Assembly: GCA_964521575.1 (NCBI GenBank)
Contig: CAZFSR010000001.1
Coordinates: 368,470 to 432,469, forward strand
Source: an uncultured Synergistaceae bacterium
GTDB taxonomy: Bacteria > Synergistota > Synergistia > Synergistales > 79-D21
Direction of reading: 5' to 3'
DNA length: 64,000 bases
The translations under genes and the position numbers were made by a program. A model generated the notes under the pieces. That model did not search any database and was not told where the DNA came from. It saw nothing but the letters and a program-made list of their open reading frames with translations. Shown here one piece after another: positions 16,837 through 30,426 of the stretch (the stretch's first letter is position 1; each line of letters opens with the position of its first letter).

Positions 16837-18291
16837 CTACTCGGCTGCGGAAACCGATTCTTTCTCCCCGGACCACTGGCCCACCAGGAGGCCCAGGAGG
16901 TAGAGGCCCGCCGAGAAGGCGATCCCCACGAAGAAAGGGTGAAGGGCGGAAAGCGAGGGCGGGACTTGCACGCCCAGGAGCCCCTTGGCGGTAGGGGCGA
17001 ATCCCGCCGCGTACCAGAGGCTTGCGGCGGCGAGTCCCCCGAGGGAGGAGGCCCATGTTGCCAACCGGTCGGCCTTTCCCGCAAGAAGCGCCAGGTAAGG
17101 GACGAGGATCGCCGAGGCGATGAGGCTCCAGCTGGTCGTGCAAAGAAGGGCGATGATCGTTCCGCTTTTCGCCGCGAAGAGCCCCGAAGCGACGGCACAA
17201 GTCGCGGTGGCGCCTTTCCAGGCCGCCCCTTCGAGTCGACGGCCCGTCAGGTCGTGCCCCAGGCTGCCTGCGGCGATGTGGAGCAGGGCCGATGCGGTGG
17301 AAAGTGAAGCCGAGACGATGGCCATGGCGAAGAGCTGCTGCCCGGGAAGCGAAAGCAGCCTTGAGACGAGCAACGGAATGACGGCATCGGGGGAAGCGAC
17401 CTCGTCGGGGTTGATCAGAAGCCGCGAGAGGCCTCCTGCCAGGTAGGTGCCGCCGACGAGGAGGGCGATGACCAGCATGGCCACTGGAGCGGCCTTTTTG
17501 GCCTCATCGCGGGACGAGAGGGCGAAGTGCCGCTGGATCAGCTGGGGCTGGGCCCAGACCCCGATGGAGGTGACCGCGGCCAGGGTCAGGACGAAGAGGC
17601 CTTGCGGTCCCTCGCTGAGCCGGGTGAATCCCCTGTTGGCCAGTTCCGTCGGGGGAAGGGCAGCCAGCGCCTGCAGGCCGGAGGGCAGGCCCCCGACAGC
17701 CTTGAACACCGCAAAGAGGAGAAGGCCCACGCCCACGGCCATGATTCCGCCCTGCAGGGCTTCCGTGTAGAGGACTCCCCTGAGGCCGCCCCAGGTGACG
17801 CTCACCGCGACGATGAGGACCAGGATCCAAAGGGAAGCGGAAAACGGCAGCGGCGTCACCCCCGAGAGCATCATCGCGGCTCCCTTGAAAACGGCTGAGG
17901 CGTAGACGACCAGCAGTCCTCCCGTCAAAAGGCCGGCGAATACCCGGAAAGAGTTGGAACCGATGGCGGCCCCAAGCAATGCCCCCGGGGTTTTTGCGTT
18001 CAGGCGGCGCTGCCAGAGGCGCGTGGGCCAGGCCAGGAAGCGGTAGGCGAACCAGGTCCCGAACCAGATATTTCCCGCGGCGATCAGGAGCATCTGCAGG
18101 CCGTAACGATGGCACAGTCCCCCGAACCCCACGAGGGCCACGGCCGAAACGTAGGTGGCCACGTAGGCCAGGGCCTGGATGGCCGAACCGACACGGCCGG
18201 GAAGCAAATGGTCCTTCCCCCTTGCCCAGCGGGCAAGGGCGACCAGCAGCAACGCGTAGGCACACCACAGAAGAATAAAACCGAAATTCAT
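16837..18291 (-). CDS. Sodium:solute symporter (SSF) family transporter
   Basis: 484 aa with about 12-13 hydrophobic segments. The N-terminal region resembles PutP/PanF/SSF architecture. Substrate unknown. Confidence 0.8.
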   Translation of the reverse strand: MNFGFILLWCAYALLLVALARWARGKDHLLPGRVGSAIQALAYVATYVSAVALVGFGGLCHRYGLQMLLIAAGNIWFGTWFAYRFLAWPTRLWQRRLNAKTPGALLGAAIGSNSFRVFAGLLTGGLLVVYASAVFKGAAMMLSGVTPLPFSASLWILVLIVAVSVTWGGLRGVLYTEALQGGIMAVGVGLLLFAVFKAVGGLPSGLQALAALPPTELANRGFTRLSEGPQGLFVLTLAAVTSIGVWAQPQLIQRHFALSSRDEAKKAAPVAMLVIALLVGGTYLAGGLSRLLINPDEVASPDAVIPLLVSRLLSLPGQQLFAMAIVSASLSTASALLHIAAGSLGHDLTGRRLEGAAWKGATATCAVASGLFAAKSGTIIALLCTTSWSLIASAILVPYLALLAGKADRLATWASSLGGLAAASLWYAAGFAPTAKGLLGVQVPPSLSALHPFFVGIAFSAGLYLLGLLVGQWSGEKESVSAAE

Positions 18292-21778: not shown

Positions 21779-21906
21779 TCGGGCTCCCCCGGTGTAAAAT
21801 TGGTATGACTATTGAAAGCTATAGCGAAGCAGAATAATGGTTATCCCGCTCGATGTCAAGATAAACCCGTTCCATGCTTGCGGGAAAAATGAACGGGGGG
21901 ATGAAA

Positions 21907-22698
21907 ATGAAGAACATGCTGCTGCTTGTGGATCCCCAGAACGACTTTTGCGATCCGGAAGGCGCCCTGTTCGTTCCAGGAGCGGCGGGGGACGCTCGCC
22001 GGACGGCCGAGATGATCGATCGCGTTTCACCCGTTCTCGACGACCTTGTTGTCACGCTCGACTGCCATCATGTCCTCGACGTCGCCCACCCCCTGATGTG
22101 GGTGGACCGTGAAGGGAAGCATCCGATGCCCTTCACGCAGATCTCGCTGGAAGACCTTGAAAGCGGCACCTGGAACGCGGTCCGGCCGGAATGGCGGGAC
22201 AGGCTCCGGCAGTATGTTTCCGACCTCGAGGCTTTCGGGCGCTACCGGCTGACCATCTGGCCCGAGCACTGCCTCGTCGGCGGCTGGGGTTTCGGGGTCG
22301 TCCCCTGCGTATTCAAGGCCGTCACGGGATGGGAAAGGAGGCATGCGGCGTCGGCAACGCTTGTCCTCAAGGGGGAAAACCCCTGGACCGAACATTACTC
22401 GGCGGTCAGGGCCGAGGTTCCTGACCCGGGGGATCCACGGACCGCGATCAACCGCGTCCTCCTGGAAAGAATCCTCTCGAGCGACTGTTGCGCGGTGGCG
22501 GGCCAGGCCCTTTCGCACTGCGTGGCCAACACGGTCCGTGATCTCGTCGAACCTCTTGGGGGCGACCTGTCCAGGCTGGTTCTCATCCGTGATGCGACTT
22601 CGAGCGTTCCCGGTTTCGAGTCCATCGGCGAAGCGTTCCTGGAAGAGATGGCGGCACTGGGCATGCGGCTCGAGTCCAGCACCGCCTTCCTGTCCTGA
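21907..22698 (+). CDS. Isochorismatase-family cysteine hydrolase (nicotinamidase-like)
   Basis: LLLVDPQNDF (catalytic Asp region) and AGQALSHCVANTV (nucleophile Cys). The start is chosen 6 nt after the GGGGGG run. In-frame ATGs at 21901 and 21874 are alternatives. Confidence 0.75.
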   Translation: MKNMLLLVDPQNDFCDPEGALFVPGAAGDARRTAEMIDRVSPVLDDLVVTLDCHHVLDVAHPLMWVDREGKHPMPFTQISLEDLESGTWNAVRPEWRDRLRQYVSDLEAFGRYRLTIWPEHCLVGGWGFGVVPCVFKAVTGWERRHAASATLVLKGENPWTEHYSAVRAEVPDPGDPRTAINRVLLERILSSDCCAVAGQALSHCVANTVRDLVEPLGGDLSRLVLIRDATSSVPGFESIGEAFLEEMAALGMRLESSTAFLS

Positions 22699-22709: not shown

Positions 22710-23984
22710 TCAAGCGCCCGATGTGACCCGGACCCGCTTTGCCTTGCCCTCGAACCGTTCCAGGCTGCCTGGGAGGAGGACCTTCACCGCGACGCGCAGC
22801 CCCAGCGCCTCGTGGAGGGCCCGCACGGCCTCTTTCTCGAGCCGCTCCATCTCCAGTTCGCCCAGGCCCGAAACGCTTTCGACCAATACGGCCAGGTCCT
22901 TCACATAGTTCTTTTCCGACACCTCCAGGGCATAGTTCATCGAAAGCCCCGCCACGTGTCCCAGCGCCGCTTCGACCTGGGTGGGGAAGACGTTGACCCC
23001 CTTGATGATGAGCATATCGTCGGACCGTCCCCTGATGCGGGCGATCCGGGTGGCCTGCCGCCCGCAGGCGCAGGTGCCGGGGATGATCCGGGTCAGGTCG
23101 CGTGTCCGGTAGCGGGCAAGCGGCAGGGCTTCCTTCGTCAGGGTCGTGATGACGAGCTCTCCCTCTTCCCCGTCCGGCAGGAGTTCTCCTGAAACGGGAT
23201 CGATGATTTCAGCGATGAAATGGTCCTCGTTGAGGTGAAGCCCGTCCTGGCAGCGACACTCGATCGCCACGCCGGGCCCCATGACCTCGGAGAGGCCGTA
23301 GATGTCGAGGGCGGGGACTCCCAGGCCCGCCTGGACCGTCTGCCTCAGGGCCTCAGTCCAGGGTTCGGCGCCGAGGATCGCGACCTTGAGGGAATGGCCG
23401 GGGCCGTGCGGGTTTTCTTGTTTCGATGCCAGGACTTCGGAGAGATGAACGGCGTAGGAAGGCGTGCAGGCGATCGCTGTGCTGCCGAGGTCCTGCATCA
23501 GCTGGATCTGTCGCTCGGTGAAGCCGGTCCCGGAAGGGATGACCGTCGCCCCGAGGTGTTCCCCCCCGTAATGGAAGCCGAGTCCCCCCGTGAACAGCCC
23601 GTAGCCGAACATGACCTGCAGGGTGTCACGGTTCGTGACCCCCGCGATGGCCAGGCAATTCGCCATGCAGTCTTTCCAGGCCTCGAGGTCGTTTTTCGTG
23701 TAGGCCACGATGGTCATCTTGCCGGTCGTTCCTGAGGAGGCGTGGACCCGGAGCAGTTCCTCCCTGTCACAGGCCAGAAGACCGAAGGGATAGGCGTCCC
23801 GCAGGTCCTGCTTCGTGGTGAAGGGAAGTTTCTGCAAGTCTTCTGCTGCCCGGATGTCCGACGGGGCGACACCGGCCTTTGCCATCTTCTCCCGGTAGTG
23901 GGGAACCCGGTCCCAAAGCCGTTTCACGGTATCCTGCAGCTTTTCCGCCTTCATGCTGTTTCCCTTCCGGTTCGTTCCTTCCAT
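22710..23984 (-). CDS. paaK: Phenylacetate-CoA ligase
   Basis: 424 aa from the ATG preceded by AAGGAGGAGAGAAAA. PaaK-type N-terminus (VPHYREKMAKAGV...LPFTTKQDLRDAYPFG) and AMP-binding motif SSGTTGK. The track start at 24053 adds 23 unlikely residues. Confidence 0.9.
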   Translation of the reverse strand: MEGTNRKGNSMKAEKLQDTVKRLWDRVPHYREKMAKAGVAPSDIRAAEDLQKLPFTTKQDLRDAYPFGLLACDREELLRVHASSGTTGKMTIVAYTKNDLEAWKDCMANCLAIAGVTNRDTLQVMFGYGLFTGGLGFHYGGEHLGATVIPSGTGFTERQIQLMQDLGSTAIACTPSYAVHLSEVLASKQENPHGPGHSLKVAILGAEPWTEALRQTVQAGLGVPALDIYGLSEVMGPGVAIECRCQDGLHLNEDHFIAEIIDPVSGELLPDGEEGELVITTLTKEALPLARYRTRDLTRIIPGTCACGRQATRIARIRGRSDDMLIIKGVNVFPTQVEAALGHVAGLSMNYALEVSEKNYVKDLAVLVESVSGLGELEMERLEKEAVRALHEALGLRVAVKVLLPGSLERFEGKAKRVRVTSGA

Positions 23985-24006
23985 TTTTCTCTCCTCCTTT
24001 GGCAAT

Positions 24007-24041
24007 AAAAAAGGCCGGGGCCCCTTTTGGGGACCCCGGCC
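24007..24041 (-). terminator. Intrinsic terminator (attenuator) abutting the paaK RBS
   Basis: On the minus strand: GGCCGGGGTCCCC AAAA GGGGCCCCGGCC TTTTTT. The T-run ends 22 nt before the paaK ATG, so there is no room for a promoter. Confidence 0.8.
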
Positions 24042-24059
24042 TCGAATCGGCACGGACGC

Positions 24060-24140
24060 CTAGGCGTCGGCCCTCCGAGGGGGTCCCACGCCGGTAAAAA
24101 AGAAGCGGACGGACATCTTTGAGTTAGTTGGATTCATCAT
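24060..24140 (-). CDS. Candidate Phe-codon leader peptide (26 aa) MMNPTNSKMSVRFFFTGVGPPRRADA
   Basis: Three consecutive Phe codons TTC TTT TTT (24104-24096). The stop TAG sits inside the palindrome GACGCCTAGGCGTC. GGGACCCC within the ORF is perfectly complementary to GGGGTCCC in the terminator 5-prime arm. No clear Shine-Dalgarno. Confidence 0.55.
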   Translation of the reverse strand: MMNPTNSKMSVRFFFTGVGPPRRADA

Positions 24141-24180
24141 TTTGTCATCTCGCGATTTTATAGGGATAAATTAGTGAGAA

Positions 24181-24210
24181 CTTATACCATGCCTCTCCGC
24201 TTTTCGTCAA
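24181..24210 (-). promoter_or_regulatory. Candidate promoter of the paaK leader
   Basis: TTGACG (24210-24205), 18-nt spacer, TATAAG (24186-24181). Lies 10 nt downstream of the murE stop. Confidence 0.45.
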
Positions 24211-24219
24211 GGTCTTATC

Positions 24220-25716
24220 TCACGGGACGACCTGAATGCCCCTAAAGCGGCTCCACTCCAGCACGCTCTCCTCGTCGTTGTAGGGAACGGGACCCTGGGC
24301 GAGGATCATGGTCGTCTCCGGCCCCTTCCCCGCCAAAAGGACGACGTCGCCGGGACGTGCGGCATCGAGTGCGGCATGGACCGCATCCCGCCGGTCCAGG
24401 ATGACGGAATGGGACCGGATCCGCGGTCCGTCCAACCCTTCCTCGATCTGCAGAGCGATGCGCATGGGGTCTTCGCTTCGGGGATTGTCCATGGTGAGCA
24501 CCACATGGTCGGCATGGGTCGCCGCGACTCGGCCCATGAGAGGCCGGTTTTCGACCGTCCTCTCCCCTCCGAGTCCGAAAACCGCGTGGACGGAACCGCG
24601 ACAGTTTTCCCCGACGGCCTTGAGAGCTTTCTCGAGCCCGTCGGGGGTGTGGGCATAATCGATGAAGCAGGAAACGCCGTTTTCGAAACGGAAGCGCTGC
24701 AGCCTGCCGGGCACGGGGGGTGCGTTCTCGATGCCCAGCCGGATCGGTTCCGGTCCCATCCCAAGGATCATGCCGAGGGCCGCCGCGGCGAGAACGTTCG
24801 ACACATTGTGAAGGCCCACGAAGGGGCTTTTGACGCGCAATGAAGCGCCGGATCCCGGAAGGGTGAGGTCGAGATCCGTCCCCTCGAGGTCCGCGGCAAG
24901 GACCCGGCCCCTGACCCCCGGCCCCTCCCCGACCCCGTAGGGAACCGTCCTCTCCGGGAAGAGTCCCGCGAGCCGCCGGCCCCAGGGGTCGTCGACGTTG
25001 AAGCAGAAGCGCGCCTCAGGGCGCGGATACTCGGAGAAGAGCCTGAGCTTGGCCTGGAAATAGCTTTCCATGTCGCCGTGGAAATCCAAATGTTCCGGGG
25101 TCAGGTTCGTGAAAGCCAGGGCGTCGAAGCGGCACCCTTCTAGCCGGTGAAGGTCCAGCCCGTGGGAAGAGGCCTCCATGACGCAGGCGGGCACCTTGTT
25201 TGCGACCATTCGCGAAAGCCAGCGCTGGACCGATGGGCCGTCGGGAGTGGTTCGGACGCCGGGTTCCTCGGATTTGCCGTCGTCGTAGACGATGGTTCCC
25301 AGGAGCCCGCAGGGCACCCCCCCATGGCGAAGGATCGACCGGGTGATCCAGGCGGTGGTGCTTTTCCCGTTTGTACCGGTGACGGCGGCAAGGCGCAGCC
25401 GGCTCGCCGGGAAACCGTGAACCGCTGCGGCTGCGGTTGCGGCCGCCTTTCGGACGTCGTTCACGCAGATCACGGGCAAAGAGGTGTCCAGGGAACGCTC
25501 AGCGAGAAAGGCTGCGGTGCCTTTCTTTTCCGCCGTGCCCGCGAAGGCGTGCCCGTCGGACTTGAAGCCCCTGACGCAGCAGTAGAGGGCGCCGGCCTTG
25601 ACGTCGTCCGTTCGGGTGCAGACGTCCGTAACGGTGGGATCGTCAGAGGCAGACCGGGCGAAAGCCGGGTCAAGCCTGGCCGATTCAAGGATCTGGAAAA
25701 TTCGCGAAAGTTTCAT
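24220..25716 (-). CDS. murE: UDP-N-acetylmuramoyl-L-alanyl-D-glutamate--2,6-diaminopimelate ligase
   Basis: 498 aa. VTGTNGKSTT P-loop and the DNPRSEDP (DNPR) motif associated with meso-DAP-specific MurE. Confidence 0.9.
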   Translation of the reverse strand: MKLSRIFQILESARLDPAFARSASDDPTVTDVCTRTDDVKAGALYCCVRGFKSDGHAFAGTAEKKGTAAFLAERSLDTSLPVICVNDVRKAAATAAAAVHGFPASRLRLAAVTGTNGKSTTAWITRSILRHGGVPCGLLGTIVYDDGKSEEPGVRTTPDGPSVQRWLSRMVANKVPACVMEASSHGLDLHRLEGCRFDALAFTNLTPEHLDFHGDMESYFQAKLRLFSEYPRPEARFCFNVDDPWGRRLAGLFPERTVPYGVGEGPGVRGRVLAADLEGTDLDLTLPGSGASLRVKSPFVGLHNVSNVLAAAALGMILGMGPEPIRLGIENAPPVPGRLQRFRFENGVSCFIDYAHTPDGLEKALKAVGENCRGSVHAVFGLGGERTVENRPLMGRVAATHADHVVLTMDNPRSEDPMRIALQIEEGLDGPRIRSHSVILDRRDAVHAALDAARPGDVVLLAGKGPETTMILAQGPVPYNDEESVLEWSRFRGIQVVP

Positions 25717-30177: not shown

Positions 30178-30207
30178 TTGACAGGGCCGGAAGGTCCGTG
30201 GTAAATT
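30178..30207 (+). promoter_or_regulatory. Candidate promoter of the trp leader
   Basis: TTGACA (30178-30183), 18-nt spacer, TAAATT (30202-30207). The predicted start site falls at or just before ATG 30215. A divergent TTGACA (30165-30160) with TACTAA could serve the gene at 29138..30082. Confidence 0.45.
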
Positions 30208-30214
30208 CCTCGCC

Positions 30215-30283
30215 ATGATGAATCGATATAGCGACAACATGACCGCAACGAACGTGAAGGCACTTTGGTGGTGGGGGTCCTAG
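30215..30283 (+). CDS. Trp-codon leader peptide MMNRYSDNMTATNVKALWWWGS (or 14 aa from ATG 30239)
   Basis: Three consecutive TGG codons at 30266-30274 and stop TAG at 30281-30283. A terminator follows 30 nt downstream. Not in the ORF track because it is under 60 aa. Confidence 0.75.
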   Translation: MMNRYSDNMTATNVKALWWWGS

Positions 30284-30312
30284 GCCCCCGCCCACCTTGG
30301 CATGTGCTGAGA

Positions 30313-30349
30313 GGGCCGCGGGGAAATCAATACCCGCGGCCCCTTTTTT
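30313..30349 (+). terminator. Intrinsic terminator 1 (attenuator) upstream of trpB
   Basis: GGGCCGCGGG (30313-30322), 10-nt loop, CCCGCGGCCC (30333-30342), C, T6 (30344-30349). Confidence 0.8.
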
Positions 30350-30361
30350 ACCCGGAAACCG

Positions 30362-30392
30362 GCGGGGGCCCGAAGGGCCTCCCGCTATTTTT
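30362..30392 (+). terminator. Second terminator-like hairpin upstream of trpB
   Basis: GCGGGGGCCC GAA GGGCCTCCCGC (one mismatch) followed by TATTTTT. Lies 35 nt before the trpB ATG. Confidence 0.5.
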
Positions 30393-30426
30393 GTTCCCAA
30401 AACCCATTTTCGAGGAGGAAGATGAG

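Follow-up and report, generated by a model that had tools for sequence, protein, structure and literature searches.

The 64,000-nucleotide (nt) stretch analysed here, from an uncultured Synergistaceae bacterium and called the window below, carries between murE and a gene of the phenylacetate-CoA ligase (PaaK) family a short leader, which is the subject of this work. All of its parts, from promoter to paaK, can be read from the sequence and lie on the minus strand. The murE gene, whose product has Mur ligase domains, stops at 24220 and is followed by the −35 box TTGACG (24205-24210) and, after an 18-nt spacer, by the extended −10 box TGgTATAAG (24181-24189, with TATAAG at 24186-24181 and TG at 24189-24188). 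From a presumed start site, a probable 5' untranslated region (UTR; 24141-24174), which includes the weak Shine-Dalgarno (SD) sequence GAGAUGA and is conserved in the orthologues, leads to an open reading frame (ORF) that starts with ATG and comprises 26 codons and a stop, MMNPTNSKMSVRFFFTGVGPPRRADA* (24060-24140). Within it are three consecutive Phe codons, TTC TTT TTT (24096-24104). Behind the ORF stands an intrinsic terminator (24007-24043), found by a scan and in the minimum free energy (MFE) fold of the full leader: a 14-bp stem (24043-24030/24024-24011) with a 5-nt loop and a T6 tract at 24012-24007. A ribosome-binding site (RBS), GGAGGAG (23991-23997), invariant in the orthologues, then precedes the 424-amino-acid ligase gene (22710-23984). 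The original prediction had named this promoter, the 26-codon ORF with its Phe codons, and a GC-rich terminator whose T6 ends 22 nt before the paaK ATG, through which every paaK transcript must read. All of this holds, save that the stem begins at 24043 and not at 24041; and the 22-nt gap, which ranges from 22 to 75 nt across the loci compared, leaves no room for a second promoter behind the terminator.

The gene downstream was identified by Pfam, TIGRFAM and structure matches. It has the Pfam domains AMP-binding and AMP-binding_C_2, and its nearest solved structures, 2y4o (E = 3e-119), 2y27 and 4r1l, are all phenylacetate-CoA ligases. The score against TIGR02155 (PaaK), 508.7 bits, lies under the cut-off of 646.3, and by these profile scores the protein is a member of the PaaK family and not the equivalog of the aerobic pathway. 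The mechanical ORF list starts the gene at GTG 24053, in the terminator region (ORF 22710-24053, minus strand). Because the RBS and the ATG are conserved, the true start is, on that evidence, ATG 23984 rather than 24053. In the window the ligase gene is monocistronic, since the next gene, an isochorismatase-like ORF (21874-22698, plus strand), is convergent to it.

The promoter is well preserved. TTGACG and the −10 box are unchanged in nine orthologous loci, the spacer between the two varying freely, and the leader 5' UTR of about 35 nt is conserved among the orthologues although the promoter spacer is not. Every leader class described below has TTGAC(A/G/C) as its −35 box, and TGnTATAA(A/G) is found in 10 of the 11 leaders compared, from classes 1, 2, 3 and 7, the exception being locus L189 with TGA TATAAG. 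Our promoter scan demanded T at position 6 of the hexamer, and the TATAAG of the window leader was unlisted for that reason only.

How widely does this arrangement occur? Orthologues were collected by protein homology, and then the contigs encoding them, from sources named Synergistales, Synergistaceae and Aminithiophilus ramosus. The homologous ligases fall into two sets: tight orthologues with 82-91% amino acid identity, and Synergistota paralogues or relatives with 57-64%. The leader arrangement was present at 11 of the 11 Synergistota-clade PaaK homologues looked up with their upstream DNA. As a negative control we took the matches listed in the PaaK protein scan that come from other phyla (Desulfobulbaceae, Clostridia and others; about 50% and in all cases at most 54% identity), and at none of these 80 loci was the arrangement found, mini-ORFs with a terminator occurring there as chance-like matches only. 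Six orthologues with upstream DNA are syntenic with the window (DUF3798 - gntR - murE - ligase) and have the same leader. At one locus, L087, murE is absent upstream and the leader is unchanged. The check that the original prediction had proposed, conservation of the Phe-Phe-Phe mini-ORF upstream of orthologues, thus came out in its favor, and the aromatic run is kept even in front of paralogous and distant Synergistota ligases.

The more distant leaders are instructive. A paralogue with 62% identity, found in the same species group as an 83% orthologue, has its own leader, MRLHSVTPKMNRFFAIRYYFTGVGPPRWADA*, in which the promoter region and the peptide's N-terminus differ and the 3' half of the RNA is nearly identical to that of the window leader. 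The Aminithiophilus ramosus leader, MSRRCVFSMGYFFTNAGPAPGSA*, has different downstream RNA and its own terminator, and loci L216 and L217 contribute leaders ending in ...VFSFTNAGPAPGSA and ...FLYNFYFFTNVGPAPGIGVRLR. A scan of metagenomes with an 18-nt degenerate pattern, which fixes one TTT codon and the start of the antiterminator strand discussed below, returned 120 stretches. Of these, 17 have the motif inside a short ORF, with a terminator and a T tract behind it and then the gene for a PaaK homologue (52-89% identity), and further classes came to light, with leaders ending in ...NFFFFTSAGPPRGAGA, ...GFYFYYFTGVGPPQRFDA and ...GFFFFTNAGPARRIGG*.

Seven leader classes, preceding ligases that are 52-100% identical, can be compared in this way. 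Their aromatic runs are FFF, (FF/LF)xxxYYF, YFF, FSF, FFFF, FYFF and FYFYYF; within class 1, to which the FFF leaders belong, the three codons are invariant. In every class the run ends 9 nt before GGG(A/U)CCC, the partner of the terminator 5' arm. The peptide's N-terminal part drifts across the family, and in class 2, for example, 11 of the 13 variable leader codons alter the amino acid. Because the length of the run and its Phe/Tyr make-up vary while its position stays fixed, the run behaves as regulatory codons would and not as part of a fixed peptide. An FFF run would be expected by chance in 25 gene-like codons with P ~0.0013 (about 1 in 760). In this 63% GC genome TTT is the rarer Phe codon (22 TTT against 123 TTC), and TAT, which is used in the paralogue run, is also rare (20 TAT against 83 TAC).

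Is the mini-ORF translated? The substitutions among orthologues argue that it is. In a first alignment of nine loci, all changes between the second ATG of the ATGATG pair at the ORF's start and FFF are synonymous third-position changes, and the swaps seen in the ORF are AAT/AAC, CCA/CCG, ACT/ACC/ACG, TCA/TCG, AAG/AAA, TCC/TCT, GTC/GTT/GTG and CGC/CGT. When nine distinct orthologous leaders were compared, metagenomic ones included, the variable sites numbered 2, 3 and 10 at codon positions 1, 2 and 3, and six variable codons were purely synonymous in the ORF frame, with none in either of the other two frames. Substitutions 5' of the ATGATG pair show no codon-like pattern, and because that stretch lacks it, translation most likely begins at the pair. 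The SD sequence of the window leader is GAGAUGA, that of L085, L091 and L189 is GAGAGGA, and in the paralogue leaders GGAGG stands 6-8 nt 5' of the ATG. The original prediction had noted that the mini-ORF lacks a clear SD and might not be translated; the SD is indeed weak in the window, but the doubt about translation is countered by the synonymous pattern and by the SD sequences of the paralogues. We also note an extra in-frame ATG, without an SD, seven codons 5' of ATGATG (MKSRDDKMMNPT...), present in all orthologous leaders except that of the window, which has ATA there (24161-24159). Judging from its substitutions, the stretch around this upstream ATG is probably 5' UTR.

The RNA downstream of the Phe codons can fold in two ways. 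The full leader has an MFE of -65.5 kcal/mol (z = -3.3), and none of 200 shuffled sequences folds as well. In this full-length RNA the terminator, with 11 of its 14 pairs G-C, is favored over the alternative; it is conserved at all loci, its loop varying. When the transcript is ended before the terminator 3' arm, it folds instead into one long bulged hairpin, the predicted antiterminator, with 14 nt paired. Its 5' strand, GGGACCCC-CUCGGA (24074-24087), is formed by leader codons 19-23. Its 3' strand (24030-24046) consists of UUCGAG, a GCC bulge and GGGGUCCC, and of this strand 24043-24030 doubles as the terminator 5' arm. The two strands enclose an inner hairpin (24049-24072) with the UAG stop codon (24062-24060) in its apical loop. 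The original prediction had pointed to GGGACCCC (24087-24080) as the exact complement of GGGGTCCC (24037-24030), which it is; the complementarity moreover continues, CUCGGA (24079-24074) pairing with UUCGAG (24046-24041). GGGAGGCC is a designed substitution for GGGACCCC in the antiterminator strand.

Equivalent pairing is predicted in all seven classes, nt 19/21 to 26/31 past the aromatic run being paired with 6-12 nt of the terminator 5' arm. The helices change together: some classes have GGGACCCC:GGGGUCCC and CUCGGA:UUCGAG, and others have GGGUCC:GGGCCC and CGCUCG:CGAGCG. In the MFE folds the stop codon lies in the apical loop of the inner hairpin in classes 1-5, next to the loop in class 6, and 3' of the hairpin in class 7. 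The folding was done class by class and no single consensus structure was used, as the register of the 3' strand differs from class to class (3-nt versus 2-nt bulge). Constrained folds of the window leader place the ribosome with respect to these helices. With a ribosome footprint masked on Phe codon 1 or 2 the entire antiterminator stays free, and with the footprint on Phe codon 3 the ribosome abuts it. A footprint on the stop codon hides the inner six pairs and the inner hairpin; the outer eight pairs remain and would need to close around the ribosome. As modelled, then, the antiterminator is mutually exclusive with the terminator; a ribosome stalled at the Phe codons leaves it free, and one that has reached the stop codon blocks it.

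Taken together, these features make it quite probable, in our judgment, that the leader acts as a transcription attenuator of the ribosome-mediated, leader-peptide type and monitors how far tRNA-Phe is charged. From the arrangement of its parts we infer stalling, the coupling of transcription to translation, and the sign of the response. Transcription would begin at the strong extended −10 promoter, perhaps joined by read-through from murE, and the 26-codon ORF would be the next element transcribed. When Phe-tRNA is scarce, a ribosome would stall when any of the three Phe codons (24104-24096) occupies its A site, its leading edge halted just before GGGACCCC (24087). GGGACCCC and CUCGGA would then be free to pair with UUCGAG...GGGGUCCC (24046-24030) once these are transcribed, and the antiterminator, having captured the terminator 5' arm, would let RNA polymerase read into paaK. 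When Phe-tRNA is ample, the ribosome would pass over the antiterminator 5' strand and reach the UAG in the apical loop of the inner hairpin; with the antiterminator blocked, the 14-bp terminator and its T6 would form, and transcription would end 22 nt before paaK. The paralogue leaders with Tyr codons would sense the charging of Tyr-tRNA instead or as well.

Several findings weigh against this interpretation. The SD of the window leader is weak, and no one ATG is common to all the orthologues, each having either the first or the second ATG of ATGATG. A run of three regulatory codons is short, and in one class it is no more than F-S-F. The antiterminator duplex, in its GC-rich context, shows a modest excess over chance, being matched by 7-47 of 500 dinucleotide shuffles; the argument for an antiterminator rests on a geometry that is kept while the sequence changes. 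The shortened transcript also folds into the antiterminator when free of a ribosome. A hairpin of the 1:2 type, which would give superattenuation, is consequently weak here, and tight coupling of ribosome and polymerase would be required. Lastly, a 69-nt core (24030-24098), which begins with the last Phe codon and reaches as far as the terminator 5' arm extends, is 97-100% identical among leaders, loops included, which exceeds what base pairing demands; third positions in paaK of the same genomes are 57-69% identical. This contrast also speaks for the leader, as a sign of selection on it. Overlapping constraints, or else gene conversion, would account for the excess most simply, and an extra binding partner may be involved too. 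We note that the core is nearly identical in the FFF leaders and the YYF paralogue leaders (L081-L091 and L093-L094), whose ligases are 62% identical.

Could the peptide rather than the codons be what matters? The C-terminal half of the leader peptide is alike in all classes (FTGVGPPR / FTNAGPAP / FTSAGPPR), and several of them contain Pro-Pro or Pro-x-Pro, a known slower of ribosomes, so that a motif [FY][FY]F-T-[GNS]-[VA]-G-P might arrest the nascent chain, as in TnaC and ErmCL, on sensing free Phe/Tyr, phenylacetate or a drug in the exit tunnel, with no role for tRNA charging. However, the codons of the conserved segment make up the antiterminator 5' strand, so that RNA pairing suffices to explain it, and the run varies, from two of three residues up to six and between Phe and Tyr, while the N-terminus drifts, as codon sensing predicts. 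A stall at the GPP codons, moreover, would cover the antiterminator strand and so lead to termination, not read-through, and we consider nascent-peptide arrest improbable. We give less credence still to an untranslated structured RNA, whether a riboswitch or an attenuator bound by a PyrR- or TRAP-like protein, in which the ORF would be incidental. The extreme conservation of the core, which extends to the loops and is common to the paralogue leaders, would suit such an RNA, as would the weak SD in the window. Yet the changes 5' of FFF are synonymous third-position changes in the ORF frame only, the paralogue leaders have a strong SD and ATG, and in the other classes the architecture and the aromatic codons persist and the core sequence does not, with no unpaired nucleotides conserved across classes from which an aptamer might be built. 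Nor did any Rfam family reach its gathering score in the whole window. At E ≤ 10 a search of 23900-24300 brought up no leader family, RF01859 (Phe_leader) included; the T-box model gave no match in the window leader, and ARAGORN reported nothing tRNA-like in it.

The best Rfam match in that search, BcKCsr2, is to a small RNA (sRNA). At 35.5 bits it is below its cut-off of 40 and reflects a generic hairpin plus terminator, and this weak resemblance, with the fact that a discrete transcript of about 165 nt would lie between a strong promoter and a strong terminator, raises the question of whether the unit is an independent gene for an sRNA or a small protein, paaK being expressed by leakage. Against this, the unit always lies directly 5' of a PaaK-family gene, whether the gene upstream is murE, gntR, encapsulin or a hypothetical gene, and the distance from T tract to ATG leaves paaK no space for a promoter of its own. 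The unit was never seen without a ligase: of the motif matches that lack one, those checked in detail (L135, L164 and L214) also lack the ORF and terminator arrangement. We rank this reading below the untranslated RNA, as very improbable. The notion that the hairpin and T6 are simply the terminator of murE, with the FFF ORF there by chance, can be all but dismissed. The hairpin does lie only about 180 nt past murE in the window, but a consensus promoter sits between the two, paralogue loci carry the same unit in other contexts, and a chance FFF is expected as rarely as stated above. Because L087 keeps an identical leader with no murE upstream, the terminator is not that of murE. Attenuation by a translating ribosome, set against these four, is the reading we adopt.

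The attenuator proposed here has familiar relatives. In the E. coli pheA (PheL) and pheST (PheM) leaders, a Phe-rich ORF precedes a terminator that competes with an antiterminator, and scarce Phe-tRNA brings about read-through. The paaK leader likewise joins a leader ORF with Phe codons to a terminator with a competing antiterminator, but it has no homology in sequence or structure to RF01859, even at E ≤ 10, and its three Phe codons are fewer than the seven and five of the pheA and pheST leaders. It is found in Synergistota, whereas PheL and PheM belong to Gammaproteobacteria; its target is an arylacetate-CoA ligase rather than a chorismate-pathway enzyme or PheRS; and its sister leaders mix Tyr with Phe codons. 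With enterobacterial TrpL it shares a few tandem regulatory codons and a ribosome whose position would pick antiterminator or terminator. Unlike TrpL, it has a weak 1:2 pause or anti-antiterminator hairpin, and its antiterminator is one long bulged hairpin with, in most classes, the stop codon in the apical loop. A T-box riboswitch responds to the same signal, uncharged tRNA giving read-through, which the paaK leader would sense by way of translation instead. Other lineage-specific leaders have been described by comparative means, namely the His-codon leaders of the Bacillus cereus group, Peptostreptococcaceae and Erysipelotrichales (PMC9413887) and the upstream-ORF attenuator candidates uORFC-8-2 (cysS) and uORFC-13-1 (aroF-like, Phe) (PMC8632094). 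The paaK leader resembles these in being restricted to a lineage and in having 2-5 regulatory codons just 5' of alternative hairpins; they concern other amino acids or targets in other phyla, and none concerns paaK or Synergistota.

The window holds a second leader of like design. At 30178-30420 on the plus strand, TTGACA-17-TGgTAAATT is followed by an ORF with a Trp-Trp-Trp run, MMNRYSDNMTATNVKALWWWGS* (30215-30283), by a terminator, GGGCCGCGGGG...CCCGCGGCCCC with T6 (about 30313-30349), and by a PALP/trpB-like gene, with a second hairpin and T run (about 30361-30393) before the RBS of that gene. As in the paaK leader, a mini-ORF comes first and then a terminator, which bears out the parallel with a WWW-led trpB-like gene that the original prediction had drawn. 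The ORF-list start of the PALP/trpB-like gene (TTG 30265) is an over-extension across this leader.

The genes around the ligase differ among its relatives. In some orthologous genomes a 35-aa ORF and then a sodium:solute symporter gene (L087 4460-5914; L089 4319-5790; L090; L092) come after the ligase gene on its strand. This symporter gene may be co-transcribed with the ligase and hence be controlled by the attenuator. Its counterpart in the window (16837-18291, minus strand) is about 4.4 kb from the ligase gene, beyond esterase, ATP-grasp and proC genes. A role for this SSF symporter as a phenylacetate transporter was considered and found no support, the protein scoring as a generic PanF/PutP-like one. 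The ligase genes with class 3 and class 7 leaders (L095, L216 and L217) lie between an encapsulin pair (Linocin_M18 and EncFtn-like) and Rrf2 - cysteine desulfurase - NifU, and the leader is retained there in a context wholly unlike that of the window. Directly 3' of the ligase in the paralogue classes there is a small ORF (40-59 aa) with the motif EDWGE(I/F)ALGY(V/L)EA(R/K)KA (L093 5268-5447; L094 5289-5462; L095 5292-5435; L216 4313-4471; L217 4284-4406). It matched no family, and the window lacks it, the gene after the ligase there being the convergent one.

Outside the Synergistota, the iorA-iorB-paaK operons of Clostridia and Bacteroides contain a ligase of this family with about 50% identity. 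The Clostridia homologues directly follow iorA-iorB, with TIGR03336 scores of 676-733 bits, whereas the Synergistota ligase, at the loci searched, stands alone, apart from the genes for indolepyruvate:ferredoxin oxidoreductase (IOR), and has its own attenuator. No T-box or other Rfam element was found upstream of iorAB-paaK in 20 Firmicutes loci. In Desulfobulbaceae loci (L009 1133-2660; L005 2095-2820) the PaaK homologue follows genes for LivG/LivF-type ABC ATPases and not iorAB, which suggests that the ligase family occurs in a third type of context.

What would a cell gain from a ligase controlled in this way? Because any stall at the aromatic codons would turn the gene on, the ligase is presumably wanted when Phe is short. 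Reductive carboxylation as a route to Phe was reportedly established for rumen anaerobes by Allison in 1965. By this route the ligase would make an arylacetyl-CoA, an indolepyruvate/phenylpyruvate:ferredoxin oxidoreductase (IOR or PPFOR) would carboxylate it reductively, and transamination would yield Phe. We infer on this basis that the ligase serves an anabolic, or salvage, route from imported phenylacetate through phenylpyruvate to Phe. The paralogue led by YYF may do likewise for 4-hydroxyphenylacetate and Tyr, and the Tyr-rich paralogue leaders suggest a division of labor between Phe and Tyr.

In the opposite, catabolic direction the products include gut phenylacetate and p-cresol. Whether PaaK-type ligases and IOR in anaerobes work catabolically, toward aryl acids, or anabolically, toward aromatic amino acids, is under debate (PMC13285125). 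In the same 2026 study, phenylacetate, 4-hydroxyphenylacetate and indoleacetate proved to be substrates of the AMP-forming ligases associated with IOR in Bacteroides and C. difficile, and the authors argued that such arylacetate-CoA ligases are probably anabolic (PMC13285125). An aryl-acid route to the aromatic amino acids in Methanococcus maripaludis is attributed to Porat et al., as cited in PMC4162585. The anabolic PaaK of the original prediction fits both the geometry of the leader and these arguments (PMC13285125). Against our interpretation counts that tblastn, run on the window and on the fetched Synergistota paaK loci, found no IorA or IorB, and no IOR or PPFOR gene lies beside any of these paaK genes. 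An attenuator that would open only at uncharged Phe- or Tyr-tRNA is regulatory evidence, written in the genome, for the anabolic direction.

One may go further, though we offer this as a speculation that is more doubtful than the attenuator itself and rather unlikely as a whole. The leader codons (FFF, YYF, FYFYYF and so on) might label the amino acid that each paralogous ligase serves, and with the WWW-led trpB-like gene these units might form a Synergistota salvage regulon that makes Phe, Tyr and Trp from the end-products of fermentation (phenylacetate, 4-hydroxyphenylacetate and indole) rather than from chorismate; the 69-nt core might, in addition, bind a factor as a second input. If the codons are such labels, they could predict the substrate preferences of the paralogous ligases in a testable way. 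A bench test is feasible, as Aminithiophilus ramosus (CP072943), which carries a class 3 leader, is cultivated.

Full-text searches of the literature found no paper that ties a leader peptide or attenuation to a phenylacetate-CoA ligase, and no description of leader-peptide attenuation in Synergistetes. We rate the leaders described here as a new family of a known type of regulator, placed on a new kind of target gene. Classical leader-peptide attenuation would thereby be extended to the Synergistota and to a class of target that is new for it, a ligase that would activate compounds for salvage.

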